64,000 bases of DNA, taken from Desulfobacterales bacterium (GTDB lineage Bacteria; Desulfobacterota; Syntrophobacteria; B119-G9). The notes under the pieces are model-generated. The model searched no databases and was not told the origin of the DNA. It worked only from the letters and a program-made list of their open reading frames with translations. Positions 8,349 through 40,514 of this stretch are shown piece after piece. A program made the translations under genes and the position numbers. The DNA lies in the NCBI GenBank assembly GCA_026983715.1, contig JALSTM010000077.1, forward strand, positions 304 to 64,303. The letters are read 5' to 3'. How positions within the stretch are numbered: position 1 is the stretch's first letter; each line of letters starts with the position of its first letter.

Positions 8349-8508
8349 TGTTCCTCCTGAGATTAATGTTAACATCTGGGCCACGCCCACGCAAAGACCA
8401 TGGCAAGTAGACTTGATAATCATAAACGATAACCAAGAAGCTGTCCAATTAAAGCCTTATGTGTCCCATTAGCATGGGGGTGGAATTTATCAATCATTTC
8501 TCGATCAT

Positions 8509-13129: not shown

Positions 13130-14842
13130 TCAAGCAGATGGGAAATATATTCGGAAAGTAGCCCCGTTGGTTTTGCCTTCGTCCAGGGCAATTCTTCCAC
13201 CGTACTCATTAACTATTCTTCTAACAATACTCAACCCAAGTCCTGTACCCTTGGTTTTGGTGGTATAAAAGGGATCAAAAATCCTGCTGCGTATCTCTGG
13301 CGGTATTCCTGCGCCTGTATCGCTTACTATGATTTCTACTTCCGGGGTTGAGCTTTCTCCATTTATGTCCACGTTGCCAGTTTTAACGGTAAGAGTCCCT
13401 CCTTGTGGCATGGCTTCGATGGCATTGGTAAAAAGGTTCCAGAGGATTTGCTGGAGTTGTTGAGGGTCAACGGCTATCTTTAGCCCTTTTTGCGTTTCTT
13501 TGATAATTTTTATCTTGCTATTTACTTCCCAGTTACTCTTCAAAATGGTGAGAGTATCGGAAATAGTTTTGTCTACGTCAACCTCCTGTGGAGCTTTCTT
13601 CTTCGACTTGGTGAGTAGCGAAAACTCTTTCACGAGGGAATTCAAGCGCTCTATTTCCCTGGATACGATATCCATCAGGCGATTTTGCAACGGATTGAGT
13701 TTGAGTTCTTTCTTTAACATCTGTATGGAACCGCTCATGGATGCCAAAGGATTTTTGATTTCATGGGCTACCACCGCTGCCATTTCCCCTGCTAGCGCCA
13801 GTCGTTCCATGTGCTTTACCTGTTGTTCCATCTTTTTCAACACAGTAAGATCCTGAAAAACGAGTATGTGGCCGTATTGTTCTCCTTGGGTTCCTCTTAA
13901 TCTTGACAAGGAAAACCCTAGAAATAATTTTTTTCCGTCCCTTCTGACAAATTCCATCTCGCCTCTACTGGTTTTTGTGCGCCAATCTGACTCTAGCTTT
14001 TTAGTCCTGGGCAAGTAATTTGAAATATTTGGAAAAATATCTTCTACGGGAGTGTTCAGTAGTTTAGAGAGATGGTCTGTCCCGATGATTTCACTTGCGG
14101 CTCTATTGAAATAAATTATCCTGAAGTTGTTGTCCAAGGTTATTAAGCCACTGTTTATGCTTTGCACTATATTTTTGTTCAGCATCTCTAATTCGGCAAG
14201 GTCTTTTTGTTTCGCCTTCAATTGTACTTTGCTTTTCTTGAGCTCTTCCGTCAAATGGCTGCTTAAAAAGGCAACCAGGTAGAAGGCACTGCTGGTGACA
14301 AGGAGAGTATAGAGGTAACTACCCGAGGGTGCAGGGGAGGTATAATTTAGTTCTGGGGGGAGGATATATTTGAAAGCGCCGTAGTATTGAAGGTCAAGAA
14401 TAAGGCCGTAAAAAATGGAACTAGCCGATGCTATAATAAAGCTGCCACGCCTGGAAAGTATGGTGGCCGCTATTATTATTACAAGAATATAGCCGAAGGA
14501 AAATATACTGGTGATCCCGCCTGTGAAAAGAATAATCAAAGATACAAATACCGTATCGAAAAGGAGCTGCCCGTAAGCGAAGAGTACGGGATTCTTAACG
14601 TATTTCAGGTAAAGCGAAAAAATAGCTGTGAAAAAAAAGAGTGATCCGGCGAGAAGAGACAAATAGACAACGGGAAGCGAAAAGAAAGATTTGTAACGAG
14701 ACCCCTGGAAATAAAGAGTCAGACCAAGAAGAAAAGTAGCGACAAGCAGACGAAAAAATATCAGATACTTTACCTTGACGAGAATCTTTTCTTCTTCGTG
14801 CTCTTTTCCTTCTTGGGAAAAGGCAAAATTTTTCCTGGTCAT
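13130..14842 (-). CDS. Membrane sensor histidine kinase (PilS-like position downstream of pilB-pilC): multi-TM N-terminus, PAS, HisKA, HATPase_c
   Basis: About 6 TM helices in the first 200 aa; H-box 'AHEIKNPLASMSG'; N box 'NLFTNAIEAM', G boxes 'DTGAGI', 'GLGLSIV'. Confidence 0.8.
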   Translation of the reverse strand: MTRKNFAFSQEGKEHEEEKILVKVKYLIFFRLLVATFLLGLTLYFQGSRYKSFFSLPVVYLSLLAGSLFFFTAIFSLYLKYVKNPVLFAYGQLLFDTVFVSLIILFTGGITSIFSFGYILVIIIAATILSRRGSFIIASASSIFYGLILDLQYYGAFKYILPPELNYTSPAPSGSYLYTLLVTSSAFYLVAFLSSHLTEELKKSKVQLKAKQKDLAELEMLNKNIVQSINSGLITLDNNFRIIYFNRAASEIIGTDHLSKLLNTPVEDIFPNISNYLPRTKKLESDWRTKTSRGEMEFVRRDGKKLFLGFSLSRLRGTQGEQYGHILVFQDLTVLKKMEQQVKHMERLALAGEMAAVVAHEIKNPLASMSGSIQMLKKELKLNPLQNRLMDIVSREIERLNSLVKEFSLLTKSKKKAPQEVDVDKTISDTLTILKSNWEVNSKIKIIKETQKGLKIAVDPQQLQQILWNLFTNAIEAMPQGGTLTVKTGNVDINGESSTPEVEIIVSDTGAGIPPEIRSRIFDPFYTTKTKGTGLGLSIVRRIVNEYGGRIALDEGKTNGATFRIYFPSA

Positions 14843-16054
14843 TTAACCGGCTACTACTCCTGCCATCTTGAAAATTGGCAGGTACATTGAAATAACCAGA
14901 CCCCCGATAACCACCCCCAAAAATACCATCATGAAAGGTTCAAGCATGGATGTCAGAGCATCAACGGCAGCATCCACTTCTTCGTCATAATAGTCGGCTA
15001 TTTTGCCAAGCATTGCATCGAGTGCGCCGGTAGATTCCCCTACCGATATCATCTGGACAACCATGGGAGGAAATACCCCGCTATGCATCAGAGGTTCGGT
15101 AACGCTTTTACCTTCGGCCACGCTGGCTCGGGTTTCTAGTATAGCCCTTTCAATCACCTTGTTTCCGGCAGTTTTTGCAACGATATCCATGGCTTCAAGA
15201 ATGGGAACGCCGCTGCTAAGCATGGTTCCGAGGGTGCGAGTAAATTTTGCCACTGCAACCTTTCTGAGTAACATGCCGAAAACGGGCAAACGTAAAACCA
15301 GCCTGTCTGTTAAATCTCGCCCCTTTTCTGTAGCTCGAAACCTTTTAAAGGCAATAAAAAGTAAAATAATGCCGAGGATAAACCAGTGAAAGTAACTTCT
15401 GACCGTATTGCTGACATTTATAACAAACTGGGTCGGAGCAGGAAGAGCTGCGCCGAAATCTGCAAACATCTTGGAAAAAACAGGGATGACAAAGATAAGA
15501 ATAACAGCCGTTACAAGGACGGCAATTATCGTTACTATGGCAGGATAGGTCATTGCCCCCTTTACCTTTTTCTTCAAGGCGGCAATTTTTTCCATGTATG
15601 CTGCCAACCGGTTTAAAATTACATCAAGAATACCACCCACTTCCCCTGCCGCAACGAGATTGATGGTAAGTTCGTCAAATATCTGAGGGTGTTTTTTAAG
15701 AGCGTCAGCAAAGGTAGAACCTTCTTCAACGTCTTTCTGCACCTGTTTGAGAATTGTTTTGAATGTCCTGTTAGTCTGCTGTTCCTGGAGAATCTGCAAT
15801 CCCTGGACTAGCGGGAGTCCAGCGTCGATCATGGTTGCAAACTGGCGAATGAATACCACGATATCTTTTTCTTTTACCTTCGGTTGTAGCCATTTAACGT
15901 TTTCAAAAATATCTTTTGGCTTTGGCTTAATCTTGGTTACCGTAATATTCTGACGCCGCAAAAGGAGGCGCGCAATATTTTCGTTGTTGGCTTCTATTTC
16001 GCCACTCCTTTTGTTTCCCTTGGCATCTTTTCCTTTCCAAACATAGACAGGCAT
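14843..16054 (-). CDS. pilC: Type IV pilus assembly / T2SS platform protein PilC (GspF family)
   Basis: 403 aa, two repeated T2SSF domains, 3 TM segments; immediately downstream of pilB with an 11-nt gap. Confidence 0.85.
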   Translation of the reverse strand: MPVYVWKGKDAKGNKRSGEIEANNENIARLLLRRQNITVTKIKPKPKDIFENVKWLQPKVKEKDIVVFIRQFATMIDAGLPLVQGLQILQEQQTNRTFKTILKQVQKDVEEGSTFADALKKHPQIFDELTINLVAAGEVGGILDVILNRLAAYMEKIAALKKKVKGAMTYPAIVTIIAVLVTAVILIFVIPVFSKMFADFGAALPAPTQFVINVSNTVRSYFHWFILGIILLFIAFKRFRATEKGRDLTDRLVLRLPVFGMLLRKVAVAKFTRTLGTMLSSGVPILEAMDIVAKTAGNKVIERAILETRASVAEGKSVTEPLMHSGVFPPMVVQMISVGESTGALDAMLGKIADYYDEEVDAAVDALTSMLEPFMMVFLGVVIGGLVISMYLPIFKMAGVVAG

Positions 16055-16064
16055 TTAATCCCCC

Positions 16065-17801
16065 TTAATCCTTAACAGAACACCGGATTACTTCTTCAAT
16101 AGTAGTAATTCCTTCCTTTAATTTCAAAATTCCACTTTGTCTCAATGTTAGCATACCGAGTCTCATTGCTTCACGTTTTATTTCCGTGGTTGAAGCGCCC
16201 ACAAGGATCAATTCCTTTATTTCTTCGTAAATCGGCATGACTTCATACAAAGCTATTCTACCTTTATAGCCCGTGTTACTGCAAACCGGGCATCCGCTTC
16301 CCTTGTAGCATTTAAAGGTTCCAATGTCGTCTTCGTCTACCCCCAGGTCCAAGAGTACCTCTTCGGGGACTTCAACTTCTTCCTTGCACTGGAGGCATAC
16401 CCGCCTGGCCAATCTTTGTGCCAGGATGAGATTTACCGATGAAGACACCAAAAATGGCTCCACACCCATGTTCAACAGCCTGTTAATTGTACTGGGGGCA
16501 TCGTTGGTGTGAAGTGTGCTCAAGACCATGTGGCCAGTAAGTGCAGCTTTAATGGCAATTTCAGCGGTTTCGAAGTCTCTAATCTCTCCGACCATTATTA
16601 TATCGGGATCCTGCCTAAGAAAAGACCTCAGGGCAGCGGCAAAGGTGAGACCTATAGCTTCGTGAATTTGAACCTGGTTTATCCCGGGAAGGTTAAATTC
16701 TACCGGGTCTTCTGCGGTGGAAATGTTTTCCGTGGTTTTGTTTAACTCGGAAAGCGCACTATAGAGTGTGGTTGTTTTACCGCTTCCCGTGGGGCCCGTT
16801 ACAAGTACCATTCCGTAGGGCTTATGGATCGCTTCCTTGAATAGCTTGAGCTGTGTCTCCTCAAAGCCGAGTTTTGTCATGTCGAGCTGGAGGTTGGACT
16901 TGTCGAGCAATCTCAGAACCACTTTTTCCCCGAAAAGCGTCGGAAGTACCGATACCCGGAAGTCCATCTCCCCTCCCCGAACTCTGAGCTTGATCCGTCC
17001 GTCTTGAGGCAGGCGCCGCTCCGCAATATCAAGGCGGCTCATGATTTTAATACGGGAGATGAGGGCGTTTTTTAACTTCAAGGGGGGTTTCATTATTTCG
17101 TAAAGTACACCGTCGATCCGGAACCTAACCCGAAACATCTTCTCGTATGGTTCTATATGAATATCGCTGGCGCCTTTTTTTATGGCGTCCATCAGTATCA
17201 GGTTGACGAGTTTTACAACCGGTGCCTGTTCTGCTTCGTTTTCCACGGAGTCAAGATCAAAGTCGTCAGTCATGGAAACGACATCAATATCGTCATCTTC
17301 CATGCTTCCAATAACGTCTTCGAGAGATGTTGACGGATCAAAGTATTGCTGAATCACAGATATTATGGAACTTTCCGTGGCAACGTTTACCTGGATGTTC
17401 TTTCTCGTAAGAAACCTGATGTCGTCAATAATGAAGTGGTTGCTAGGATCCGCCATGGCAATACTTAGCGTATTGCCCTTGAGGGCTATGGGAACAAGCA
17501 AATATTTCTGGATCATGTGAGCCGGAATGAGGTCGATAATTTTCTGGTCAATGTCCAACTTGGTGGGATCAACTGCGGGCACCCCGAACTGGCGACTGAG
17601 AAACTCCATTAAGTCGGATTCGTTAATGTATCCCAGTTTTACAAGGCTAGAACCCAGAGAGGAACCGGATGTACTCTGGTCTTCCAGAGCCTTATCCAGC
17701 TGCTCCATTGAAATCAACGATTCTCTTAGTAGTAATTCGCCAAGCCTCTTGACGGATCGCGTTTCCAAAGCCCTTTTTAACCCCTTGAAATTAAGCCCCA
17801 A
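16065..17801 (-). CDS. pilB: Type IV pilus assembly ATPase PilB (GspE family) with N-terminal MshEN-type c-di-GMP-binding motif
   Basis: Walker A 'GPTGSGKTT', Asp/His boxes, tetracysteine motif (CLQC...CPVC); N-terminal 24-aa motif 'RLGELLLRESLISMEQLDKALEDQ'. Confidence 0.9.
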   Translation of the reverse strand: MGLNFKGLKRALETRSVKRLGELLLRESLISMEQLDKALEDQSTSGSSLGSSLVKLGYINESDLMEFLSRQFGVPAVDPTKLDIDQKIIDLIPAHMIQKYLLVPIALKGNTLSIAMADPSNHFIIDDIRFLTRKNIQVNVATESSIISVIQQYFDPSTSLEDVIGSMEDDDIDVVSMTDDFDLDSVENEAEQAPVVKLVNLILMDAIKKGASDIHIEPYEKMFRVRFRIDGVLYEIMKPPLKLKNALISRIKIMSRLDIAERRLPQDGRIKLRVRGGEMDFRVSVLPTLFGEKVVLRLLDKSNLQLDMTKLGFEETQLKLFKEAIHKPYGMVLVTGPTGSGKTTTLYSALSELNKTTENISTAEDPVEFNLPGINQVQIHEAIGLTFAAALRSFLRQDPDIIMVGEIRDFETAEIAIKAALTGHMVLSTLHTNDAPSTINRLLNMGVEPFLVSSSVNLILAQRLARRVCLQCKEEVEVPEEVLLDLGVDEDDIGTFKCYKGSGCPVCSNTGYKGRIALYEVMPIYEEIKELILVGASTTEIKREAMRLGMLTLRQSGILKLKEGITTIEEVIRCSVKD

Positions 17802-24852: not shown

Positions 24853-25305
24853 ATGAGATCAGAGCTAGAATATTACATGAAGCTTGAATATCCTTGTGAG
24901 ATTACCCCTCTTCCAACTGAGTTGGGACCGGGATATGAGGCATGTATCCCCCAGCTCGGGAGGTATGCTTTTGCCGCAACGGGTAAAACAGTGGAAGAGG
25001 CTCTAAGAAACCTGGAAACTCGAAAAAAGAAGCTTTTCGAAAAATACCTTGAAGAAGGGATCAGCATACCTGAACCCAAGCTGGAAAAACCACAAGCCTA
25101 TAGTGGCAAGTTCGCTCTCAGGATGCCCGTGGAACTTCACAAGGAACTCGCAGAGGGTGCCAAGGCTTCTAGAATGAGTTTAAACAGTTACCTTATCTAC
25201 CTGCTGACAAAGTATCATGGCAGGGAGGTTTATTTGAGACAATTTGAGCGTATATTGAAGCGGGTAGAAAATCTTGAAAAAAGGTTGATAAAGGATTTTG
25301 ATTAG
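24853..25305 (+). CDS. HicB-family antitoxin-like protein (RNase H-like fold plus C-terminal RHH); no HicA partner seen
   Basis: N-terminal 'YPCEITPLPTELGPGYEACIPQLG' pattern and C-terminal 'MSLNSYLIYLL' ribbon-helix-helix. Confidence 0.55.
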   Translation: MRSELEYYMKLEYPCEITPLPTELGPGYEACIPQLGRYAFAATGKTVEEALRNLETRKKKLFEKYLEEGISIPEPKLEKPQAYSGKFALRMPVELHKELAEGAKASRMSLNSYLIYLLTKYHGREVYLRQFERILKRVENLEKRLIKDFD

Positions 25306-26233: not shown

Positions 26234-27067
26234 TTAATTCTTTGCTTTCCTCCGGGTAAGCCCCACAAGGAAAACCACGCCACTTCCCAGGAGCAAAAGG
26301 GAACCAGGAATGGGAACTGTAGTGGAAACCGGATTTGGAGATTCAAACTCGACTTCACTTAGAAATAGCCAGAACATTCCGTTGTGAGCACTGTTGGAGT
26401 CATTATTCCATAAAATATCAGCGTATTCCCAGTCGTTACCACTTTCTTGTAGTTGACTGAATATATTCCAATTACTAAGAGTGATAGAAATCTCATCGTT
26501 GCTCTGTATATCCAGGCTACCAAGATCGAAGCTTATTTCATGGAGCCTCCCGTTGTTGTACCCGTTATCGGTACCAGACCTTCCTTTTAGAAAAGAACTT
26601 GTAAGCGAAACGAGCTCGGTGCCGTTTCTCTTTATTGAGATTTCTCCCGGATAGACAACGTTAAAGCTATGAATGGCATCCTGGTTGGTCCATAGGTTTA
26701 TTGACGAAAGCTCAAAACTTTGCTGGAAAGAGAAGGTGATAGTGACGGGGTTATTGGCGTAATCTCCTTTGCTTATCCTTCCATCTTGGTCTGCGTTACC
26801 CTGGTAAGAAATGCCCCACCAACCTACCCAATCCTGGTAATCCTCGGTCCAATTATCTTGCCCCCTGATACCATCTGTGAGCTTGGTGTAAGATGAGTCA
26901 TCATAGGTATAGGATCCCCCATTTATCCAGCCGGCATTAGGCTCTCTGGAAAAACTGTAACTTGACGGCATTACTAAGTAAGCATAAGAAGGCACATTCA
27001 ATGCCAAGCCAATTCCCAACAAAAACACTATCAACACTGCTTTTTTTATACTATTTCTTGGTAACAT
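26234..27067 (-). CDS. Secreted PEP-CTERM (exosortase-sorted) protein, variant signal 'VPIPGS-LLLLGSGVVFLVGL-TRRKAKN'
   Basis: N-terminal signal peptide; C-terminal tripartite sorting signal (P-rich motif, hydrophobic helix, basic tail); Ser/Asn/Trp-rich, low complexity. Confidence 0.65.
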   Translation of the reverse strand: MLPRNSIKKAVLIVFLLGIGLALNVPSYAYLVMPSSYSFSREPNAGWINGGSYTYDDSSYTKLTDGIRGQDNWTEDYQDWVGWWGISYQGNADQDGRISKGDYANNPVTITFSFQQSFELSSINLWTNQDAIHSFNVVYPGEISIKRNGTELVSLTSSFLKGRSGTDNGYNNGRLHEISFDLGSLDIQSNDEISITLSNWNIFSQLQESGNDWEYADILWNNDSNSAHNGMFWLFLSEVEFESPNPVSTTVPIPGSLLLLGSGVVFLVGLTRRKAKN

Positions 27068-27352: not shown

Positions 27353-28369
27353 TTATTTCCTTGGCTTCTTGGTGTTATTACAAGGGCTGGATCTTTTCAG
27401 CACTTTTTGAGCGAATGGTGAATTTGAAAGCAAGCTCTCAACTAATCCAAAACTTGAAATTTTACCTGAATACTTGGCTGCCACTCTGATCTGTCCGGTT
27501 ACCCTGCTGGTGGATTCCGGTGACAAAAGATTCGTTCCTTCCTTTTCGGAAGCCAGATTGAAAAATTCGATGACCGGCACAAAATTAACACCACTTTTTC
27601 GAGCCAAATTGCTCAATTCATCAAAGTAGAGAGGAAGCGTGCAAAAGTCCTGTTTTTTCGTTCCTATCCCGTCCTGATAATAGATTGAATCTATGTGCGC
27701 TGATGAAAAAATTTTTCTCCAGAATTTTGCCATCCCAAGCGGGCTTAACTTGCAGTTACTGAAACCGGATATCGCAATTTTAGTACCAGGAGAGACCTTT
27801 TTAATTTCACCCGTAACTTCTTTCAAAAAGAGTAAGAGAACCTTTCTTTTTTCAGGTTTAATCCAATTCGTGTCGTCGATCTCCTGGGGTATGTACCATC
27901 CTGCAAAAGCCGGATGACGGTGCACTAGCGGATAAAGTTCTCTTAGCAGTTGAAGGGAATCATGTGCTAGGCGAGCAAAGTAAATCTTAAGACTCCGGGG
28001 CCTTTCCTTGATTCGTACCCAAAATTCAGGGTCGTGAATTAAGCCGATCTTAAGCTTGATTTGGTTTGACTTTGCAATATCGAGAAAGTCAACCACGGTA
28101 ATCTTTGCAATCATTTTCCTGTAGGGCGTAAAAAAAGGGTTCTTGTTTATGGCTGTCCACTGCAAAATGACTTCTCGTATTCCAACATCATGAAGTTTCC
28201 TGAATATTTTTTCCCAGTCTGACTTCTCCAGGGAACTTTTCTCCTGGTCTAGTTGAATAAATGTAGAGGATATTGAGGGTTCCGCACAAGCCGTACTTGC
28301 TAAAGTACTTAAAATGAACAGCAAAAATATAAGTATGTATTTATTTTGTTTCCCAGTAGCCAATACCAT
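27353..28369 (-). CDS. Secreted hypothetical protein, possibly a glycoside-hydrolase-like TIM-barrel protein; positional analogue of E. coli ybcH
   Basis: Signal peptide (LASTACA/EP); no firm motif; last gene of the wecB-nfrB-nfrA string, 59 nt after the NfrA-like gene. Confidence 0.4.
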   Translation of the reverse strand: MVLATGKQNKYILIFLLFILSTLASTACAEPSISSTFIQLDQEKSSLEKSDWEKIFRKLHDVGIREVILQWTAINKNPFFTPYRKMIAKITVVDFLDIAKSNQIKLKIGLIHDPEFWVRIKERPRSLKIYFARLAHDSLQLLRELYPLVHRHPAFAGWYIPQEIDDTNWIKPEKRKVLLLFLKEVTGEIKKVSPGTKIAISGFSNCKLSPLGMAKFWRKIFSSAHIDSIYYQDGIGTKKQDFCTLPLYFDELSNLARKSGVNFVPVIEFFNLASEKEGTNLLSPESTSRVTGQIRVAAKYSGKISSFGLVESLLSNSPFAQKVLKRSSPCNNTKKPRK

Positions 28370-28428
28370 TTATTGTTATGCCTATTAAAAATGCTAGAAA
28401 CTAACCTTACGTTTCCTGTGTTAGAAGT

Positions 28429-31400
28429 TTAGTAACTGATTATCAGTGTTAGAAAGAATCCATCTATCTTTCTTTTGTCTACTCCCCCTGCAGTCAGTTC
28501 ACCCCGTTTATAGTAAGCAAGTAACTCCGCGCTATGGTGATCGCTTAAGTAACTGGTTCCTCCCCAGAAATACTTCCCTGATATTCCGATACCCCCCTCA
28601 ATAAAAGAACTGTCCTCCCTGTCAGGGGTGTACCATATTCCGTCTGCGATCAAGTGCGGGGTAAGAACAAATTTCGGGTATACCTTGAAGCTCCACCCTT
28701 GTCTTAATTCCCCGTACCAGAGCATCCGGTCACGATGGGGAAAGTAGTAATTGATTTCGCTGTAAAGGTACGAATAATTCCAATTATCTTTTACTGTGTT
28801 CAATTCGTACCCCCTCGACCAATCGTAGAGGCCTCTAACGAGCCAGTTATCTTCAGAGTCGTCGCCGATAGAAAAAAGCCTTTCCATTCCTACCTTGAAC
28901 TTGAGTTTTTTGAAAGGCTTGTATCTTAACCCAATGGCTCCTTGCCAGGTGTCCGAATCGGTGTCCAGGGAATCTTCCCGGAGATTTACAGTGGTTCTGG
29001 CTATCGCCTCCAGAATCCTGTAGTCCCGGAATCCTATCCTAGGTAGAACCCATGTCCCTTCGAACCCCATGGTGCCTCGGGCAAGAATGCGCTCTCCTGC
29101 TCCGAGGGTTCCTCTTTCTATCGTACCGGTATCACCCGTAACAAAAGCGTCCCAGGCGGTGAAAGAAAATTTCTTGGTAAGTGCCGTGATTTCTCTCTTA
29201 TATTTCTCCCGTTTTAGTTCTGCTTCTACTTCGCTTGCCGGACTTCCAAAACAGGTAAGAGGCAGGCAATCAATTGCTTTTTTGAACTTTTCAACCCCTT
29301 CCTCATTCTGGTATGTTTGCATGTAGAGGTATGCTAAATCTGCGTGAAGATCAACCTGGTCAGGGTCTTTCCGAAGAGATTCTTTGAAAGCTGCTATTGC
29401 TTCACGGGGTTTTCCATTTTCCTTGAGAGCATCCCCGTAAGCTGATAGGTATATACTGTTTCTGTCAAGTTCAACGGCTCTTCGGAAAGCTCGCAATGCC
29501 TCGTGCTTTTCACCCAGTTCTTTGTTTACCTTGCCGAGTTCAAACCATGTTTCTGCCCGGTTGCTTGTATTAGTCAATTCTTCCCAGAGAGTTTTTGACT
29601 TTTTGAGTTCCCCGATTTGGTGGTAACATTTGGCCAGTTCTTTTTTCCTCAATATTTGCTTGTCTCGCGACAAAGTTTCCCACGATCCGGAACGAAGAAT
29701 GCTGATAGCCTGGGCAGGCTGTCCTTTTCGAGCTTCAACAATTCCGAGGTACAGTCTTGCAGTGGATGTGTTTCTTATGGAAAGAGCTTCCCTGAGTGCT
29801 TTTTCTGCCTCTTCCAGAGCCCCTTCTTGGAGAGCGAGGTATCCACACTGTTCATAAAGCAGATAGCGTTTTTGGTCATCAAGTAAGCTAGAATCTTTTT
29901 TGCCCAACCTTAGATAATGAAGGGCTACACCAGGCTTTTTCATAAGATAGTAGCTGTTTGCTATGGCTAAAAGTATTTCCGGGCCCTTTTTCATCCTATA
30001 AGCTTCAAGAAAATGTTCTATTGCTTCCTCGTGTAAACCCATGCCATCCAATGCATAGCCAAGGTTCAGCCTGTAACTCACGTTCTTAGGATATTTTTCT
30101 ACCAAGCGATAAAAGTAATCCCTAGCTTCCGAATATTTTGCCTGCTTTAGTTTTATGGTTCCGAGTTGCTTGAAAAGTTCGATTTTAAGCTTCCCCGAGG
30201 TGGCAAGAGTTCTAGCTCGCTCGAGGCTTTTCTCTGCTCCTTCATAGTTACGAACCTCGAACTGTGCATTTGCCATCCCAAGAAGTGCCCTTAATCGGAC
30301 TCGAGCACTCAAGCGCTTCTTGTTTAAAACGTTCCTAAATTGAGAAATGGCTTTGTTCGGTTGACCAAGGCGCGCGTAAAGGTAGCCAAGCTGGAGGTGA
30401 ATTTTCGTTGCCGTGTTCTCACGAAGGGAATTCTCAAGTGCTTTGTTAAGATGATAGAGTGCTTTTTTGGGTTCTTTCGTGTCCAAGTACAAGATGGCCA
30501 GCTCCTGGTGGGCCTCTCCTATTTTCTGTCCCTTTTTACCTGATTTCAGAATATATTCTTTAAGGAGGGGAATTGCTGTCCCGGGATTACCTGCTGCCTG
30601 GTAGCTTGTAGCGGCCATCATGAGAAGTTCATACCTTTTTTTTCCTCCTACCTCAAAAGCTTTAAGGAAATAATCTCCTGCCTTACGATGATTGCCAGTG
30701 TGGGAGTATAGAGTTGCTATTCGAGTAAGTATCTGCGGATCTTTCCCTTTAGTTTTCCTTTCTAGTTGTAGCAAAATCTCTAGTGCCCTTCGATATTTCT
30801 TCTGTTTTTCTAGGGCTACCGCCAGAGATTCCATGGCGGCAGGGCTTTTTTTAAGTTCACTGGCTTTTGAGAGATATAGCTGTGCAAGTTCTGGCTTGTT
30901 AAGTTTCAGGTAAAGCTCCCCTAGAGCCCGATTCGTTTTGTAGTTATCAGGGGCAATTTTGAGCGCATTCTTAAATGCTTCCTCCGCCTTGTCTAGTTTT
31001 CCCAGTTTTTCCTGCTCAAAGCCGAGGTACTGGTATGCAGACAACCTATCGTGTTCTGAAAGCCCAAGTTTGATCGCGTGTTCAAGAGACTCCACTGCTT
31101 CAAGGTCTTTGCCCACGGATCCCTGAAGTATCCCAAGTGCAAGGAAGTATTCCGGTTTCCGGGAAAGCGATGCTGCTTCGGCCATCTCTTCTTCAGCTTC
31201 CACGAGCTTTCCCTGTTTCTCAAGGGTTATAACAAGTTCCCTCATAACCTCGGGATCACGCTTTACTCGGAGTGCTTCCCGGTAGAACTTCTCTGCCAGT
31301 TTCAATTTACCGAGCTTGTATGCCAGGGTGCCCTTTTTTCGGGCAATTTTTACACGTCTTTCATTGTTCGCCGGTGGTAAAGTCACGGAATTAAGAATTT

Positions 31401-32220
31401 TAAAGGCCTCTTCGAAATACCCTTCCTTTTCAAGGTAGGTTACAAGAATCAACCTGGTATCTAGAGCCGGGTTTAATTCTATGCTTTTCTTAATCAACTT
31501 GATTGCCCTTTTGGTTTCTCCAAGGGAGTCCGCCATGACGGCAATCTTTTTAAGGGCAATGGGATCCATGGAATATTTTAAAGCAAGATGCGACAACTTG
31601 GAAATTGCCAAATCTTTTTGAGATGTGGCGGCAAGAGCTTTGATCTCCAGCAAGCTAAGGTCAAGATCTTTCTCTCGTTCGGGGAGCTTTTCAAGAAGCC
31701 TAAGAATTCTCTTGTAATCAGCTTGTCTTGCGAGAATAAAAAGGGCGTTTTTGAGTGCCCTGTTCTTTGTGGTAGGCTCCCTTGCGGTCGAAACCACGTC
31801 TAAAAAATCTTTTAAGGCTGCACTTGTTTTCCCAATCTCGCTGTACGAAGTTCCCCTGCACAGAAGTGCGTTAACTTCGTGGGGATCATGGCTTAAAATG
31901 ATAGTAGCCTGGGAAATTGCCTGGTCGTATTTCTTCAAGTTGTAGTATTGGTACATCAGTGTTAGCCTTGCCCGGTCATCCAGCGGCTTAATTTTAAGGT
32001 ATTCTTTTAATTCCTTTATGGCTTCTTCATACTTTTCTTCTTTTATGAGGCGATAAGCCATGTCAAGATGCGGATAACTCTTGAACTGTTTGATTTCCCT
32101 GGATATCCATCCTCCGTTGTTCTTTTCTTTTTCCTTGGCTGACACGGAAAAAGAGACATAGACAAGGCTACTGGTTAGAAGCAGAAAAAAGACCCAAAAT
32201 ATTTTTAAATGCTTATTCAT
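28429..32220 (-). CDS. NfrA/PgaA/BcsC-like outer-membrane exopolysaccharide export protein: signal peptide, very long TPR array, C-terminal beta-barrel
   Basis: 1263 aa; many TPR units; last ~300 aa are Gly/aromatic-rich alternating strands ending in aromatic residue '...LTLIISY'; overlaps the upstream GT2 synthase gene by 8 nt. Confidence 0.7.
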   Translation of the reverse strand: MNKHLKIFWVFFLLLTSSLVYVSFSVSAKEKEKNNGGWISREIKQFKSYPHLDMAYRLIKEEKYEEAIKELKEYLKIKPLDDRARLTLMYQYYNLKKYDQAISQATIILSHDPHEVNALLCRGTSYSEIGKTSAALKDFLDVVSTAREPTTKNRALKNALFILARQADYKRILRLLEKLPEREKDLDLSLLEIKALAATSQKDLAISKLSHLALKYSMDPIALKKIAVMADSLGETKRAIKLIKKSIELNPALDTRLILVTYLEKEGYFEEAFKILNSVTLPPANNERRVKIARKKGTLAYKLGKLKLAEKFYREALRVKRDPEVMRELVITLEKQGKLVEAEEEMAEAASLSRKPEYFLALGILQGSVGKDLEAVESLEHAIKLGLSEHDRLSAYQYLGFEQEKLGKLDKAEEAFKNALKIAPDNYKTNRALGELYLKLNKPELAQLYLSKASELKKSPAAMESLAVALEKQKKYRRALEILLQLERKTKGKDPQILTRIATLYSHTGNHRKAGDYFLKAFEVGGKKRYELLMMAATSYQAAGNPGTAIPLLKEYILKSGKKGQKIGEAHQELAILYLDTKEPKKALYHLNKALENSLRENTATKIHLQLGYLYARLGQPNKAISQFRNVLNKKRLSARVRLRALLGMANAQFEVRNYEGAEKSLERARTLATSGKLKIELFKQLGTIKLKQAKYSEARDYFYRLVEKYPKNVSYRLNLGYALDGMGLHEEAIEHFLEAYRMKKGPEILLAIANSYYLMKKPGVALHYLRLGKKDSSLLDDQKRYLLYEQCGYLALQEGALEEAEKALREALSIRNTSTARLYLGIVEARKGQPAQAISILRSGSWETLSRDKQILRKKELAKCYHQIGELKKSKTLWEELTNTSNRAETWFELGKVNKELGEKHEALRAFRRAVELDRNSIYLSAYGDALKENGKPREAIAAFKESLRKDPDQVDLHADLAYLYMQTYQNEEGVEKFKKAIDCLPLTCFGSPASEVEAELKREKYKREITALTKKFSFTAWDAFVTGDTGTIERGTLGAGERILARGTMGFEGTWVLPRIGFRDYRILEAIARTTVNLREDSLDTDSDTWQGAIGLRYKPFKKLKFKVGMERLFSIGDDSEDNWLVRGLYDWSRGYELNTVKDNWNYSYLYSEINYYFPHRDRMLWYGELRQGWSFKVYPKFVLTPHLIADGIWYTPDREDSSFIEGGIGISGKYFWGGTSYLSDHHSAELLAYYKRGELTAGGVDKRKIDGFFLTLIISY

Positions 32221-34456
32221 TTTCCTGTTCCCGTATCATTTCATCAAGGTAGGATTCTGAAAGCAATCCCAGCCGAACGAGAAGTTCTCCGAATTTTGGA
32301 GTTTCGAGTTCCTGGTGTTTCAATATATGTTCTAAATCTGACCTGGTTATCAGGCCCTTTTCAACCAGATATTCACCAAACCGAACCCTCTCCACTGCTT
32401 CATCAAGGTATTCATCCAGTGCTGACTTGAGTTCCTCACGCGTTACGAGTCCTTTATTTACAAGGATTTCCCCCAGGCGCTTATATGCCTTTTTTTGCAT
32501 TCGTGCAGCTTTGCGAAGGTCTTCTTCCGCTACTTTTCCTCGCCTGAGAGCAATTTCTCCGATCCTTGACCTGGGTTGCTTTTTCGTTAATCTTTCGTAT
32601 CCTTTCCGAATAGCGAGACTTATGTCTCCATGTGTGACGAGCTTTAGCACTATGGGCTTTCCCACCTGGTTTTCCAGTTCCGATAAAACCTCCCTTGGAA
32701 GAAGGGTTTCCGTGCCTACCTCTATTGCCCCTTTACTGGAAATTCCTATAGGGAAGACGCTATATTTGATTGCGAGCCTTCTGGGGAATTTTTTAAGGAG
32801 GTCAAGCGGGGTTTTATAGGGGTCGATTTCAGCGATTTCAAGGCCAAACTGTTGTCCCAGGGCTTGGAGCAAAATGTTTTCTGATACAAATCCCATATCC
32901 AGGAGAATTTTCCCGAGAAGCTCTTCTTTTTCCTTTTGTATCATAAGGGCTTTTTCAAGTTGACCGAGGGTTATAAACCGTTTTTCTATCAAAAGGTCTC
33001 CTAGGCGCTGTCGGTAACCTCTGAGTTCTTCCTCGGTGGGATAAACGTGTTCTGTCTTCTCCCAGGGAATAATTTTTCCTGTTGCCTTGTACCTTGCGTA
33101 AATCCAGATTGCTCGAATAGTTGCGAAAAAATTTACACAGTTTGACCACGGAAGGCGAGGTATGGCCAAGAGTGCCTGTGCAGGCCCGTACATGTTCCAC
33201 ACGCAGCAAACCCTCCAAGTTAATCTCCAGCAAAGGAAAAAGAGGTTAATCAGAAGGAGAGTCCAAAGTAGTGTGCCAGGGGAAATCAAGGGAGGATAAT
33301 GGTAAGCGGAAGGGTTTTTCCACTCGTAGATAAAGAGGCCTATTATAAAAATTGCAAGCACATTTCCCAGCAGGTTAATCTGGTTGGTGATGAGAGACTT
33401 TCTATCCCGATAGAGCATAAACTTGTTCATGAAACTTCCGTACCAACCAACATAAGACCATCCCTGCAAGGCGATTCCAACGACCCAGCGGGATTTCTGT
33501 CTCACTGCATCCGTAAATCTTTTCGGAAAAAATTCCTGTACCGCTATGTACTCCTTCTTTTTTTTCTTTTGGATTTTTCCATTTCTCGGGAGCGTGATTT
33601 CTCTCTCAATGGCTTTCCTGACAAAAATCTGCTCCAGGTTAAACTCGCCCATCTCGAGACCCAGTTCGTAGTCTTCGGCGAGAGAGTGTACGTTTAGAAT
33701 TTGGCCCCTGTTCTTTTCCCGCAGTAGTTCAACGGTTCTTCTGCTAAGCGCTGTGCCGACACCGGCAGAAGGCAGTATTTTGGTTAAACTTTCCCGGACC
33801 ACGAGATCACGGGTATGGTTTTCTGCAAATTCGTCCAAGTAATGGTTTCTCGTAAACTGATACCATTCCCCTGCAATCGGTAAAACCGGAAGCTGGATCA
33901 TGTCCTTGCGAGGAATTAGGTAATTGAAAAGTTTAAGAGTCAAGGGATGTAATATGTCTTCTGCGTCTTCTATCACGAAAATCTCGAACTTCCTGTCATG
34001 TTCTTTTTCGTATACCCGGATTCCTTCAAACACCCAGTTTAGACAGTCCGCTTTGTTCGTAGGACCATTCTTAGGGCAGGTTATGCGCTCTACGTTGTCG
34101 TAATGCTCGCGGACAATATCTATTTCTTTTCTTGTTTCCGGGTCATTGGGGTAGGTGCCCACAAAGATTGTATAGTTACTATAGTTTAGGGTCCTTAATG
34201 TGTTTTCAACCATGTTCCTAATAACAGCACTTTCATCCCAACAGGGGATCAAGATTGCAACCGGTTTCTCAGGAACACCCTGCAACTGCCTTTCATCTAG
34301 TGGTTTGTACTTTTTCATCACGAAGAACTTCCTGTATAGAGTCCTAAATATCCAGTACAGATCGATGGATAGTTCCTCGATTCCGTTCCACGTAAAGACT
34401 ACTCCGCAGACTATCAGGAGTATCTTGGTAGCTAGTAGTATATAAGCCATGATCAT
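32213..34456 (-). CDS. NfrB-like inner-membrane family-2 glycosyltransferase (EPS synthase) with C-terminal GSPII_E_N/MshEN c-di-GMP-binding domain and four further tandem MshEN motifs
   Basis: N-terminal TM, GT2 core (ILIPCWDE...DAED...), 4-6 TM block, then 'RLGDLLIEKRFITLGQLEKALMIQ' plus 'RIGEIALRRGKVAEEDLRKAARMQ', 'RLGEILVNKGLVTREELKSALDEY', 'RFGEYLVEKGLITRSDLEHILKHQ', 'KFGELLVRLGLLSESYLDEMIREQ'; 747 aa versus 745 aa for E. coli NfrB. Confidence 0.75.
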   Translation of the reverse strand: MIMAYILLATKILLIVCGVVFTWNGIEELSIDLYWIFRTLYRKFFVMKKYKPLDERQLQGVPEKPVAILIPCWDESAVIRNMVENTLRTLNYSNYTIFVGTYPNDPETRKEIDIVREHYDNVERITCPKNGPTNKADCLNWVFEGIRVYEKEHDRKFEIFVIEDAEDILHPLTLKLFNYLIPRKDMIQLPVLPIAGEWYQFTRNHYLDEFAENHTRDLVVRESLTKILPSAGVGTALSRRTVELLREKNRGQILNVHSLAEDYELGLEMGEFNLEQIFVRKAIEREITLPRNGKIQKKKKKEYIAVQEFFPKRFTDAVRQKSRWVVGIALQGWSYVGWYGSFMNKFMLYRDRKSLITNQINLLGNVLAIFIIGLFIYEWKNPSAYHYPPLISPGTLLWTLLLINLFFLCWRLTWRVCCVWNMYGPAQALLAIPRLPWSNCVNFFATIRAIWIYARYKATGKIIPWEKTEHVYPTEEELRGYRQRLGDLLIEKRFITLGQLEKALMIQKEKEELLGKILLDMGFVSENILLQALGQQFGLEIAEIDPYKTPLDLLKKFPRRLAIKYSVFPIGISSKGAIEVGTETLLPREVLSELENQVGKPIVLKLVTHGDISLAIRKGYERLTKKQPRSRIGEIALRRGKVAEEDLRKAARMQKKAYKRLGEILVNKGLVTREELKSALDEYLDEAVERVRFGEYLVEKGLITRSDLEHILKHQELETPKFGELLVRLGLLSESYLDEMIREQENE

Positions 34457-35673
34457 AAATTCAATTTCAGTTTCATATTGGTTTCTGTCTTCCCAGTTCG
34501 TCGAGAAAAATCAGGAGATGAAAATTGCTCTTCAGCCTCAAGCAGGGGAGCGACTCCACGACTAAACCTTTCGATGGCAAGCCTTATGCGCCTACTTGCA
34601 TGTCCGTCACCAAAGGGGTTAGGCATATCGAAACAACGAAAACGCTTCTCGGTATCCAGAATCTTCATCACTTCTTCGACGATTCTTTTCCTGTTTCTCC
34701 CTGCCAAAACACCACGATTTTGATATATAATTTCAGGACGTTCAGTGTGATCCCTCAGTATTACTAAGGGCACGTTATAATATGTTGCCTCTTCCTGTAT
34801 TCCGCCTGAATCTGTCATTGTGAGAGTTGAGTTCTTGAGCGTGTATAACGTGTCCGGGTAATCCAAAGGTTCCAGGAGGTGAACTCTCCTGTTTGGCTCT
34901 AGAATCGATTTCACAGTTGCTCTAACCCTCGGGTTCATGTGTAGCGGGAAAATAAATTCGACATCAGATCGAAGTGAGCTTATTTCATTTATGGCATCGC
35001 AAATATTGCGGAGAGGCTGCCCCCAGGATTCCCGACGATGAGATGTTACGAGTATAATCTTATTGTTACCCTGGCTTAGATTATGGATAAATCTTTTGAT
35101 GTTCACCGATGCAAACTTCTCCATCTTTTTGATAGCATCTATGACCGGATTGCCGGTCACATAGATGGTGTCTTCAGGAATTCCTTCGGTTAAGAGGTTT
35201 TTCTTAGCTGTAAGAGTTGGTGCAAGGTGCACACTTGTAATGGTACTTATTAGCTTCCTATTTCCTTCCTCGGGATAAGGACTATACAAGTTGTGTGTAC
35301 GCAAGCCGGCTTCAACGTGAAATACTGGGATCTTGCAATAATAGGCTACAAGGGCTGAAGCGAACGCACTGGAAGTATCTCCCTGCACAAGAAAGATATC
35401 AGGTGCTAAATCCGCTATAGCAACATCCATTTTCATTGTAATTCGCGAGATAATCTGGTTGAGTGATTGTTGATGTTCCATGATTCCAAGATCTATGTCG
35501 GGGGTTATGTCAAAGACTTTTAAAATGCGTTGTAACATGTCGTTGTGTTGCCCCGTGGTTACAACAAGCGTTTGAATGTCTCCAGATTCTTTCAGGGCTT
35601 TAATTACAGGACCCAGTTTTATCGCTTCGGGCCTGGTGCCGACGGCAACAAGAATTTTTGGTAGAGTGGTCAT
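34453..35673 (-). CDS. wecB: UDP-N-acetylglucosamine 2-epimerase (non-hydrolysing), WecB/MnaA (NfrC equivalent)
   Basis: 'KILVAVGTRPEAIKLGPVIKAL', 'HVEAGLRT', 'DSGGIQEEA' motifs; 4-nt overlap (ATGA) with the downstream GT2 gene. Confidence 0.9.
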   Translation of the reverse strand: MTTLPKILVAVGTRPEAIKLGPVIKALKESGDIQTLVVTTGQHNDMLQRILKVFDITPDIDLGIMEHQQSLNQIISRITMKMDVAIADLAPDIFLVQGDTSSAFASALVAYYCKIPVFHVEAGLRTHNLYSPYPEEGNRKLISTITSVHLAPTLTAKKNLLTEGIPEDTIYVTGNPVIDAIKKMEKFASVNIKRFIHNLSQGNNKIILVTSHRRESWGQPLRNICDAINEISSLRSDVEFIFPLHMNPRVRATVKSILEPNRRVHLLEPLDYPDTLYTLKNSTLTMTDSGGIQEEATYYNVPLVILRDHTERPEIIYQNRGVLAGRNRKRIVEEVMKILDTEKRFRCFDMPNPFGDGHASRRIRLAIERFSRGVAPLLEAEEQFSSPDFSRRTGKTETNMKLKLNL

Positions 35674-36204
35674 TTGGTTTACGCGTTTTTGTCAGGAAAC
35701 AGCCTAAAATCGGGTAATAATCAGCAACGTACCATTAAGCAACGTTTGGGTAATCTCTAACGATTAATTTATTACAATACTTTTATGATTATTAATTGCC
35801 TGTTTTCGCAAAGATAATATTTTCTATTTAAATGATAAAGATTCATGTTTTCGTACACTAAACTAGCAATAATATCAAGTGATTTCGGTCAAAAGTTTTA
35901 TTATTCCACAAGCTATCCTGATTTTTAGCAAAAGGAATTATCAAAGTTAGACTTATTCGATACTTTTTTGGGGGGCCAGTGGAGACTTTCCTATTGACTA
36001 TTTTTTGTGATCCCTATATTTATACCCGGTTAGTTGAACAGATTTGATGGTCGTCAGTTAATGCCCACCAAGCCGGATACTGCCCTATGATCGGTGATAG
36101 TGAAAATAGTTATCGGGCACTGTAACCGAGTTTGCGGAGCTGTACCCTCCGGAATTTTGCCAGCTTTTGGTTATATCCAAAATTGTTTGTTTAACCGCAA
36201 ATAA

Positions 36205-36783
36205 ATGTTAGAAGCTCTTATAACATCCAAAACACGTCTCCGTGTTCTAATGCGTTTGTTCTTAAATCCTGAACAAGAGGTGTATATAAGGAAACTTGCC
36301 TCCGAGTTTGGAATATCATCAAATCTTGCAAGCGAAGAATTTCATTCGCTAAGCAAGGCGGGATACCTCGTTAGCAGAAAAGACGGAAGGCAAATATTTT
36401 ATCGAGCAAATACTAAGCACCCTCTTTTTCCGGAAATTCATTCAATGGTAAGAAAAGCCATTGGGGTTAAGCATATCGAGGAAATTATTTTGAAAAAACT
36501 GGGCAACGTTGAACAGGCTTTCGTTGTCGATGACTATGCTGAGGGAAGAGATACGGGAGTTATTGATTTGGTTATAGTTGGTGATATTAATAGAAGTAAT
36601 CTGAACAACTTGGTAGAAAAGACCGAAAGGCTCATTAAAAGAAAGATACGTTCACTAGTGCTGGATAGAAAAGAATTTTTGAACCTAAAAACATATTTTG
36701 CCGATAGGCCAAAGTTGACGCTTTACCCTTTGGGTTTTGAGTCCCTGGAGATCCCTTCTGGAGAAATCACGCTAAACGCTTAA
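36205..36783 (+). CDS. Winged-HTH (ArsR-like) regulator fused to a nucleotidyltransferase-like domain
   Basis: N-terminal wHTH (IRKLASEFGISSNLASEEFHSLSKAGYLVSRKDGRQIFYR); C-terminal 'GVIDLVIVGD' Pol-beta-like NTase signature. Confidence 0.5.
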   Translation: MLEALITSKTRLRVLMRLFLNPEQEVYIRKLASEFGISSNLASEEFHSLSKAGYLVSRKDGRQIFYRANTKHPLFPEIHSMVRKAIGVKHIEEIILKKLGNVEQAFVVDDYAEGRDTGVIDLVIVGDINRSNLNNLVEKTERLIKRKIRSLVLDRKEFLNLKTYFADRPKLTLYPLGFESLEIPSGEITLNA

Positions 36784-39271: not shown

Positions 39272-39323
39272 AGTATTCTTGAGAGCTACTAGGAGTGGTT
39301 CCCGTCTACTCAGAGGTGGTTTT

Positions 39324-40514
39324 ATGAAAAAACACATACTTATACTTGGCGGTGATGGCTATCTCGGTTGGCCCACTGCCATGTATTTCTCTAACCGAGA
39401 TTATAAAGTAACAGTTGTAGATAACTATTTCCGGAGAAATGCTTGTACGGAACTTGACGTGGGCATGCTTTACCCGGTGCCGACTTTGATTCAGCGTGCC
39501 AAAATCTGGTATGATCTCACAGGAAAAGAGATAAAAGTGGTGATCGGTGACCTTACCGATCCTGAACTTATGCGGGCACTATTTGATGGTACCATAGTTT
39601 ACAATTGGGCTGTCAACCCCGAGTTTACCGGGGTGCCGGAGACTGTCATTCACTATGCCGAACAACCCTCTGCTCCCTATTCCCTTATTAATTACAAGTA
39701 TGCAAATATAACTATCAAAAATAATCTCTTGGTAACTAACAACCTTATGTTTGCTGTTCGCGATTATTCTTCTGATACTCATATCATAAAGCTAGGCACC
39801 ATGGGAGAGTACGGAACGCCAAACATTGACATAGAAGAAGGGTGGATTGAAATTGAGCACAAAGGTCGCAAGGATAGGTTCCTTTTTCCTCGCCAGGCCA
39901 GTTCGCTTTATCATACCACTAAAATAATGGATACAGATCTTCTTTGGTTTGGTGTAAGAATGTGGAATCTGCGTGTTACTGACCTTATGCAAGGTCCGGT
40001 TTACGGAATAGAGACGGAGGAATCAAAACTAGATCCGCGTTTACGCACCCTTTTCAACTATGATGAAATTTTCGGTACAATACTTAATCGTTTCATCGTG
40101 CAGGCTGTGGTGGATTATCCTTTAACTGTCTATGGAAAGGGAGGACAGACTCGTGGTTATCTGAACATCAATGATACGCTACAGTGTGTCCACATGTCAG
40201 AAATAACTCCGGCTCAACCTGGTGAACTTCGCATTTTTAACCAAATTATGGAAACTTTTTCAGTTAATGAATTGGCTGAAAAAGTTTGTAACGTGGGCAG
40301 ATCTCTTGGGTATAATGTCCGGGTCAACCATATCGATAACCCCCGTAAAGAAGCTGAAGATCATTACTATAATCCGACGTATCAAGGTTTAATAGAAATC
40401 GGAGTTAAGCCTCACTATCTCACCAAAAAAGTTTTACTAGAAATGTTCCAAATAGTTGAGCAGTACAAGGAGAACGTTAGAACTGACGTTATTTTTAGAG
40501 GGATTAAGTGGTAA
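39324..40514 (+). CDS. sqdB: UDP-sulfoquinovose synthase homolog (SQD1/SqdB/Agl3 family); start at the ATG with RBS (MKKHILILGGDGY)
   Basis: About 400-aa extended SDR; recalled SQD1 blocks 'GGDGYxGWxTA', 'KLGTMGEYGTPNIDIEEG', 'LTVYGKGGQTRGYL', 'FSVNELA', 'NPRxEAEEHYYN' all present. Confidence 0.75.
   Translation: MKKHILILGGDGYLGWPTAMYFSNRDYKVTVVDNYFRRNACTELDVGMLYPVPTLIQRAKIWYDLTGKEIKVVIGDLTDPELMRALFDGTIVYNWAVNPEFTGVPETVIHYAEQPSAPYSLINYKYANITIKNNLLVTNNLMFAVRDYSSDTHIIKLGTMGEYGTPNIDIEEGWIEIEHKGRKDRFLFPRQASSLYHTTKIMDTDLLWFGVRMWNLRVTDLMQGPVYGIETEESKLDPRLRTLFNYDEIFGTILNRFIVQAVVDYPLTVYGKGGQTRGYLNINDTLQCVHMSEITPAQPGELRIFNQIMETFSVNELAEKVCNVGRSLGYNVRVNHIDNPRKEAEDHYYNPTYQGLIEIGVKPHYLTKKVLLEMFQIVEQYKENVRTDVIFRGIKW

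Follow-up and report, generated by a model that had tools for sequence, protein, structure and literature searches.

An Nfr-type, putatively c-di-GMP-gated exopolysaccharide operon in an uncultured bacterium, probably of the Desulfobacterales

Gene content and junctions of the locus

A four-gene locus on contig JALSTM010000077.1 of a Desulfobacterales bacterium (GenBank assembly GCA_026983715.1) was analysed by comparison with the Nfr system of Escherichia coli. The stretch of DNA analysed, called the window below, comprises 64,000 nucleotides (positions 304 to 64,303 of the contig), and all coordinates are those of the window. In E. coli, NfrB, NfrA and YbcH together with WecB (NfrC) make the glycan receptor of phage N4, for which WecB is required and WecC is not (PMC8669469, PMC8669472). 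An earlier note on this DNA had placed four open reading frames (ORFs) on the minus strand and identified their products with that system, and the ORF list bore out all of these coordinates. The genes are listed as follows, from the first to the last.

34453..35673, minus strand: wecB, opening gene of the operon, 406 aa, non-hydrolysing UDP-GlcNAc (uridine diphosphate-N-acetylglucosamine) 2-epimerase by prediction
32213..34456, minus strand: nfrB-like gene, 747 aa, predicted inner-membrane processive glycosyltransferase family 2 (GT2) synthase with a C-terminal tail predicted to bind cyclic dimeric guanosine monophosphate (c-di-GMP)
28429..32220, minus strand: nfrA-like gene, 1263 aa, with signal peptide, long tetratricopeptide repeat (TPR) solenoid and C-terminal beta-barrel (predicted outer-membrane exporter)
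27353..28369, minus strand: ybcH-like DUF4434 gene, 338 aa, with N-terminal signal sequence, candidate periplasmic glycosidase-like protein

The junctions between the genes were read directly from the sequence, and the overlaps claimed at 34453/34456 and 32213/32220 were found as described. The stop codon of wecB and the start codon of the nfrB-like gene share ATGA (4 nt, 34453-34456), through which wecB is, as judged from this junction, translationally coupled to the nfrB-like gene. The stop codon of the nfrB-like gene and the start codon of the nfrA-like gene share 8 nt, ATGAATAA (32213-32220), and 59 nt separate the nfrA-like gene from the DUF4434 gene.

In profile searches, WecB was matched by the equivalog model TIGR00236 with 405.8 bits (cut-off 210) and by Pfam Epimerase_2 with 354 bits, and its score of 96.6 bits with the NeuC model stayed under the cut-off of 236. 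According to these profiles, the product of the first gene is a WecB-type epimerase, the predicted activity of which is dedicated to supplying UDP-N-acetylmannosamine (UDP-ManNAc).

Domains and homologues of the synthase, the exporter and the YbcH-like protein

The nfrB-nfrA-ybcH region of E. coli K-12 was used as the reference for the direct protein comparisons. The following features were located within the nfrB-like and nfrA-like genes.

33332..34264, minus strand: GT2 catalytic domain of the NfrB-like protein, residues ~65-375, with D164-A-E-D167, A260-E-D262 and Q320-K-S-R-W324
32849..33007, minus strand: c-di-GMP module 1, residues 484-536, N-terminal part of a canonical MshEN domain
32408..32566, minus strand: c-di-GMP module 2, residues 631-683, overlapping a Pfam DUF4388 match
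32225..32383, minus strand: c-di-GMP module 3, residues 692-744
28432..29178, minus strand: predicted beta-barrel of the NfrA-like protein, residues ~1015-1263, with a C-terminal aromatic residue (…LIISY)

The NfrB-like protein was aligned by BLASTP to K-12 NfrB with 36% identity (residues 2-747 versus 7-743, E 1e-150). The check proposed in the earlier note, namely alignment to NfrB beyond the generic GT2 core, was thus passed by an end-to-end match, which extends past that core and takes in the membrane region as well as all of the tail. The NfrB model NF008411 scored 663 bits (protein residues 3-727 versus model positions 2-720 of 723), and the related model NF012033 scored 632 bits, above its cut-off of 537. 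Hydrophobic segments were located at residues 1-26, 354-380 and 389-414, and the GT2 domain was matched by Pfam Glyco_tranf_2_3 (102 bits) and Glyco_trans_2_3 (84 bits). D164, E166, E261, Q320, R323 and W324 are invariant across 79 aligned NfrB homologues, and D262 is present in 78 of the 79. In E. coli NfrB, D169, D267 and W330 of the glycosyltransferase and L490, G491 and L537 of the MshEN domain are needed for N4 infection, which is abolished or reduced when they are mutated (PMC8669469). In a global alignment, these residues correspond to D164, D262 and W324 and to L485, G486 and L533 of the NfrB-like protein, respectively, all of which are conserved.

The c-di-GMP site of MshEN consists of two 24-residue motifs and a 5-residue linker, which make a 53-residue unit (Wang et al. 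2016, PMC5013675). Five such motifs had been claimed for the tail of the NfrB-like protein; six were counted, with starts at residues 484, 513, 631, 660, 692 and 721, and these form three 53-residue modules. Between 7 and 10 of the 11 consensus positions are matched by each of the six 24-mers, three of which satisfy a relaxed MshEN pattern taken from PMC5013675. NF053729 (c-di-GMP_motif) matched the protein in three stretches with 140 bits in total (cut-off 38). For the scoring of tails, a purpose-built hidden Markov model (HMM) of the 53-residue modules was used. Module 1, the best NF053729 stretch (484-536), scored 58 bits with this module HMM; it is continued by the Pfam MshEN match at residues 537-620 (37.2 bits, cut-off 23.1), and it resembles, by sequence search, the c-di-GMP-binding domains of MshE (PDB 5HTL) and PilF. 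Module 2 scored 55 bits, its 24-mers matching 7 and 10 of the 11 positions, and module 3 scored 52 bits, both of its 24-mers satisfying the relaxed pattern. In a side observation, module 3 (residues 691-740) was also matched by positions 3-52 of TIGR03029, the EpsG chain-length-determinant tyrosine kinase, with 53 bits, and the N-terminus of this kinase family may therefore carry an MshEN-type c-di-GMP module.

An enlargement of the tail had also been claimed and was not found: E. coli NfrB has 745 aa against 747 aa here and is homologous to its end (aligned to residue 743), so the tail here is no enlargement. Residues 414-745 of E. coli NfrB bind c-di-GMP with a Kd of ~1 μM (PMC8669469, PMC8669472). 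Modules 2 and 3 may bind the ligand as well; if they do, up to three c-di-GMP would be bound per NfrB subunit, and a steep, threshold-like response would be possible.

Modules were counted in the 80 NfrB sequences that are complete at the 3' end, of which 78 are from related loci and the other two are the window protein and its E. coli counterpart. There were none in 11, one in 24, two in 27 and three in 18 of them. The length of NfrB was observed to track this number, from ~500 aa without a module to ~540, ~690 and ~750 aa with one, two and three modules, respectively. The loci with a module-less NfrB (e.g. in Methylobacter and Thiomicrorhabdus) retain nfrA and the DUF4434 gene, often with wecB upstream. 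This series of zero to three modules on a conserved synthase constitutes a natural set of variants for studying ligand gating.

For the NfrA-like protein, TPR families were matched over residues ~50-990, with many unspecific matches in this region, and Pfam NfrA_C was matched at residues 1087-1238 (71.9 bits, cut-off 25). In BLASTP, only the C-terminal 356 residues (908-1263 versus 631-990) were aligned to E. coli NfrA, with 21% identity and E 2e-7. When homologues were sought with just the final 263 residues, nothing was returned at E <= 1e-5, because the relatives share too few exact 5-mers; when the search was repeated with a 28-sequence alignment from the related loci, only four proteins were returned, one of which is labelled 'bacteriophage N4 adsorption protein A' by JGI (Joint Genome Institute). 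The structure model of residues 1001-1263, built on the alignment of five sequences that resulted, has a mean predicted local distance difference test (pLDDT) of 77.7, a predicted template modelling score (pTM) of 0.74 and 12 long beta-strands. The C-terminal beta-barrel for which the earlier note had proposed a check is accordingly backed by both the NfrA_C match and a model with ~12 strands. The barrels of PgaA and BcsC have 16 strands, and the model points to a Nfr exporter barrel that is possibly smaller than these. A profile of the barrel domain found 813 cluster representatives among 1.84 billion proteins, of which 657 were at E <= 1e-10. Full-length NfrA_C proteins are mostly 1000-1330 aa long; the contrast between 1263 aa here and 990 aa in E. 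coli that had been drawn is correct, while the description of the protein as enlarged is not, since 1263 aa is typical of the family and the E. coli protein lies at its short end.

The product of the fourth gene was matched by Pfam DUF4434 (PF14488) with 144.6 bits (cut-off 30) and is 27% identical to E. coli YbcH (E 3e-20). A DUF4434 profile, made from 32 homologues of the related loci, matched PDB 4H41 over its full length (E 1.3e-15); the name of this entry, 'putative alpha-L-fucosidase', is the guess of its depositors. In the alignment of these 32 sequences, E163 (motif YIPxEIDD) is invariant and E268 (VVExF) nearly so. E. coli YbcH was treated in 2021 as a putative periplasmic scaffold. 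The match to 4H41 suggests that YbcH/DUF4434 is glycosidase-like rather than a scaffold, with BcsZ, PslG or the C-terminal PgaB domain as its analogue, and the protein may have hydrolase activity. In sequence searches of PDB, no solved NfrA, NfrB or YbcH was found, only generic TPR proteins and the N-domains of MshE, PilF and PilB.

Related loci and other genes of the window

Relatives of the locus were obtained by scanning one genome per GTDB species, which gave 124 stretches, and the best 80 loci were kept. The closest relative (L019, a Desulfobacterales metagenome-assembled genome) has an NfrB that is 76% identical over the first 384 residues, the part that its contig covers, with wecB upstream. 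The probable assignment of the window to the Desulfobacterales is based on this relative and on the regulator gene upstream of wecB that it shares. NfrB of the other relatives is 37-53% identical, and these belong to Desulfovibrionales, Acidobacteriota, Verrucomicrobiota/Kiritimatiellia, Nitrosomonas, Methylobacter, Thiomicrorhabdus, Omnitrophota, Elusimicrobia and others. In related loci with sufficient flanking sequence, nfrB has a same-strand wecB homologue immediately upstream in 37/74, and NfrA_C followed by DUF4434 downstream in 39/56. In 18 of the related loci, from several phyla, all four genes share this order and a single strand, which argues that the arrangement is not due to chance.

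The earlier note had given the system as described only in enterobacteria, which the published record contradicts. Junkermeier & Hengge (2021, PMC8669469) listed 1,841 NfrB homologues, which include 406 species apart from E. coli (for the most part gamma- and betaproteobacteria, with occasional members of the alpha, delta and epsilon subdivisions), with an MshEN domain in 1,705 of the homologues, and found wecB directly associated with nfrB in every organism without another wecB. The nfr cluster was also described in Achromobacter (Sellner et al. 2021, PMC8669472). Within the Nfr family, the operon of the window is an ordinary case, and its wecB-first architecture is the one already published. 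One more uncultured bacterium, probably of the Desulfobacterales, thereby joins a family of which the distribution and the wecB linkage were published in 2021, which in itself matters little. The occurrence of the operon outside Proteobacteria goes slightly beyond the descriptions in the 2021 papers, as do the series of zero to three modules, three of them intact here, and the suggested glycosidase-like nature of YbcH/DUF4434; a barrel of possibly 12 strands would be a fourth and more tentative addition, and all four concern the family as a whole.

The locus is flanked by the following features.

36205..36783, plus strand: divergent ArsR/SmtB-like winged helix-turn-helix (wHTH) gene, 192 aa, possible local regulator
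35674..36204, no strand: intergenic region upstream of wecB, 531 nt, presumed promoter region shared with the divergent regulator gene
26234..27067, minus strand: PEP-CTERM-like secreted protein gene, 277 aa, 285 nt downstream of the DUF4434 gene

The wHTH protein missed the cut-off of NF033788 (38.6 bits versus 55), scored 21 bits with Rrf2 and carries a C-terminal extension of ~120 residues. In L019, an 83%-identical homologue (3775-4302) likewise lies upstream of wecB in divergent orientation, and none was seen in the other related loci; the ArsR/SmtB-like protein may regulate the operon in this lineage specifically. An Rfam scan of the whole 64-kb window found zero RNA families and thus no c-di-GMP riboswitch. 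A link of the operon to a local diguanylate cyclase was considered and rejected, as none is encoded in the window.

The earlier note had placed the locus beside a PEP-CTERM protein gene. The C-terminus of the protein, VPIPGSLLLLGSGVVFLVGLTRRKAKN, resembles a sorting tail, with VPIPGS, a hydrophobic helix and the basic tail RRKAKN. The curated models gave only sub-threshold matches to PepA and XDP1 (best 23.4 bits versus a cut-off of 80), there was no Pfam match, and the adjacency to the module is not conserved, no homologue being found in the best 80 related loci (0/80). The gene has its own GGGAGG ribosome-binding site. It was rejected as a part of the module because of the lack of a homologue in the related loci, the 285-nt spacer and the strong ribosome-binding site of its own, and it is probably a neighbour outside the module. 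Elsewhere in the window, a TPR protein (6027-8423, minus strand) passes the cut-off of PrsT (XrtA/PEP-CTERM; 448 versus 312 bits) and adjoins a histidine kinase (4641-6008, minus strand), so that the organism probably has an exosortase sorting system; no exosortase gene was found in the 64-kb window.

A separate Wzx-type glycan/nonulosonic-acid cluster extends over 38174-63417 on the plus strand. It encodes a PseB/FnlA-like dehydratase, a UDP-sulfoquinovose-synthase-like protein (39279-40514, 400 bits, below the cut-off of 575), a MOP flippase, a NeuB/PseI-like synthase, a PseF-like cytidylyltransferase, a sugar O-methyltransferase, a polysialyltransferase-like protein, an acyltransferase, glycosyltransferase family 1/4 enzymes, a Bac_transf priming transferase, an E1 dehydrogenase pair and aminotransferases. 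The type IV pilus ATPase PilB (16065-17801, minus strand, 824.6 bits) has an N-terminal 53-residue c-di-GMP module (NF053729, 64 bits), which makes it a second MshEN-type c-di-GMP receptor in the window; its gene is followed by those of PilC and a PilS-like histidine kinase (14843-16054 and 13130-14842, respectively). Other observations were a 572-aa DUF6178 protein (8509-10227, minus strand, 448 bits) and a 150-aa HicB antitoxin-domain protein (24853-25305, plus strand) between housekeeping genes.

Proposed mechanism, alternatives and comparison with known systems

The full-length NfrB alignment, the C-terminal barrel, the DUF4434/YbcH homology and the overlapping frames agree with the identification of the four products as WecB, NfrB, NfrA and YbcH in the earlier note. 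The locus is read here as an Nfr-type synthase-dependent exopolysaccharide operon (WecB/NfrB/NfrA/YbcH) gated by c-di-GMP, with a probability of about 0.85. According to this reading, WecB would convert UDP-GlcNAc to UDP-ManNAc, and the NfrB-like protein, as a processive GT2 enzyme of the inner membrane, would polymerise the sugar and move the chain across that membrane. The three MshEN-type 53-residue modules would lie in the cytoplasmic tail of NfrB, where binding of c-di-GMP would turn the synthase on. The NfrA-like protein would then take the chain along a periplasmic TPR solenoid of ~950 residues to a barrel of ~12 strands as the exit through the outer membrane, and YbcH/DUF4434, as a glycosidase-like accessory protein of the periplasm, could trim or release the polymer. 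The polymer is presumed to consist of ManNAc, and the activation by c-di-GMP is presumed to hold in this organism as in E. coli.

Several observations weigh against this reading. The scores of the NfrB-like, NfrA-like and YbcH-like proteins are far from the equivalog cut-offs (663 versus 1170 bits with NF008411, 60 versus 1223 bits with NF007302 and 124 versus 344 bits with NF007404, respectively), and by NCBI criteria these proteins are, as far as profiles tell, distant homologues of the E. coli ones and not equivalogs. Since no more than four homologues were returned, the barrel model rests on an alignment of 5 sequences only (the query and those four). Co-transcription of the four genes is suggested by the overlaps only, and a scan for sigma-70 promoters and terminators gave fewer hits than in shuffled sequence, hence is silent on transcription units. 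This last point would also suit the view that the four genes are merely adjacent and independent, namely a housekeeping epimerase, a GT2 enzyme and a TPR protein of generic kind, and an unrelated DUF protein, a view that could further draw on the many unspecific matches of the TPR region. It is hardly credible in face of the 4-nt and 8-nt coding overlaps, the specific homology of each Nfr protein to its E. coli counterpart and the gene order kept in 18 loci across phyla, and by this conserved synteny it is effectively refuted.

Other points against a c-di-GMP-gated ManNAc polymer concern either the product or the gating. The same machinery could make another product, e.g. a GlcNAc or mixed polymer, with wecB mainly feeding another pathway such as the glycan/nonulosonic-acid cluster 2.5 kb away. 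The polymer was left without chemical definition in the 2021 E. coli papers (PMC8669469, PMC8669472), the 'TED' motif is 'AED' in the NfrB-like protein (33671-33679, residues 260-262; Ala in 2/79 homologues), and the NeuB/PseI-like synthase and the cytidylyltransferase of the 25-kb cluster could use ManNAc-derived precursors. That cluster is, however, on the opposite strand and past the divergent regulator gene, and the epimerase belongs with the non-hydrolysing WecB enzymes and not with the NeuC type of sialic-acid pathways. Together with the overlap of the wecB stop with the nfrB-like start and the position of wecB immediately upstream of nfrB in half of the loci compared, from many phyla, a linkage also reported in PMC8669469, this makes a different product unlikely.

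Slightly less likely still is a synthase that is not gated by c-di-GMP, the helical tail modules of which would serve oligomerisation or partner binding while control is transcriptional, e.g. through the divergent ArsR-like protein, the gene of which is also present upstream of wecB in the closest relative. This alternative would account for the absence of diguanylate cyclase and phosphodiesterase (GGDEF or EAL) genes from the 64-kb window, for the 11 related NfrB homologues that retain the operon without any module and for motif II of module 1, which opens with Leu (residue 513, 32918-32920) and not with R/K/P. It is at odds with the preserved consensus positions of the six 24-mers and the fit of three of them to the relaxed pattern, with the conservation of the equivalents of E. 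coli L490, G491 and L537, with the c-di-GMP_motif score far above the cut-off and with the binding of c-di-GMP by the homologous tail of E. coli NfrB (PMC8669469, PMC8669472). The Nfr-type operon with c-di-GMP gating and a ManNAc-based polymer is therefore preferred over these alternatives. A further proposition, that the NfrB tail is a modular multi-site c-di-GMP sensor, is advanced tentatively and is rather doubtful. Noted alongside it were the presence of the Nfr operon in Acidobacteriota, Verrucomicrobiota/Kiritimatiellia, Omnitrophota and Elusimicrobia and an exporter barrel that appears narrow, with ~12 strands.

In comparison with the Nfr system of E. coli, the order of synthase, exporter and DUF4434 protein, the homology of NfrB over its full length including the tail, the conserved catalytic and c-di-GMP residues that were tested there, the NfrA_C barrel domain and the dependence on a WecB-type epimerase are in common. 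The differences are that wecB heads the operon here and belongs to the enterobacterial common antigen (ECA) cluster in E. coli, that the identities are low (36% for NfrB, 21% for NfrA and 27% for YbcH), that the TPR region of the exporter is ~270 residues longer here, and that no DgcJ-like cyclase gene lies nearby in the 64-kb window. The tails differ as well: all three modules have been kept intact here, while in E. coli NfrB degeneration has affected four of the six 24-mers in part or completely, its module 2 and the second half of its module 3 being decayed (3-4/11 positions). With the MshEN domains of MshE, PilB and PilF (PMC5013675), the tail shares the 53-residue c-di-GMP unit of two 24-residue motifs, and with Thermus PilF the presence of several MshEN-type domains in tandem; unlike in those proteins, the modules are fused here to a glycosyltransferase and not to an ATPase, and modules 2 and 3 stand without the remaining MshEN domain.

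Among other synthase-dependent systems, PgaABCD of poly-beta-1,6-GlcNAc likewise has a c-di-GMP-activated GT2 enzyme in the inner membrane, an exporter of TPR-plus-barrel type (PgaA) and a periplasmic polymer-processing protein. The cellulose system BcsA/BcsB/BcsC/BcsZ is similar in having a c-di-GMP-activated processive GT2 enzyme, the TPR-plus-barrel protein BcsC and, within the operon, a gene for the periplasmic glycoside hydrolase BcsZ, and YbcH/DUF4434 may be the counterpart in Nfr operons of the hydrolases that such systems carry.

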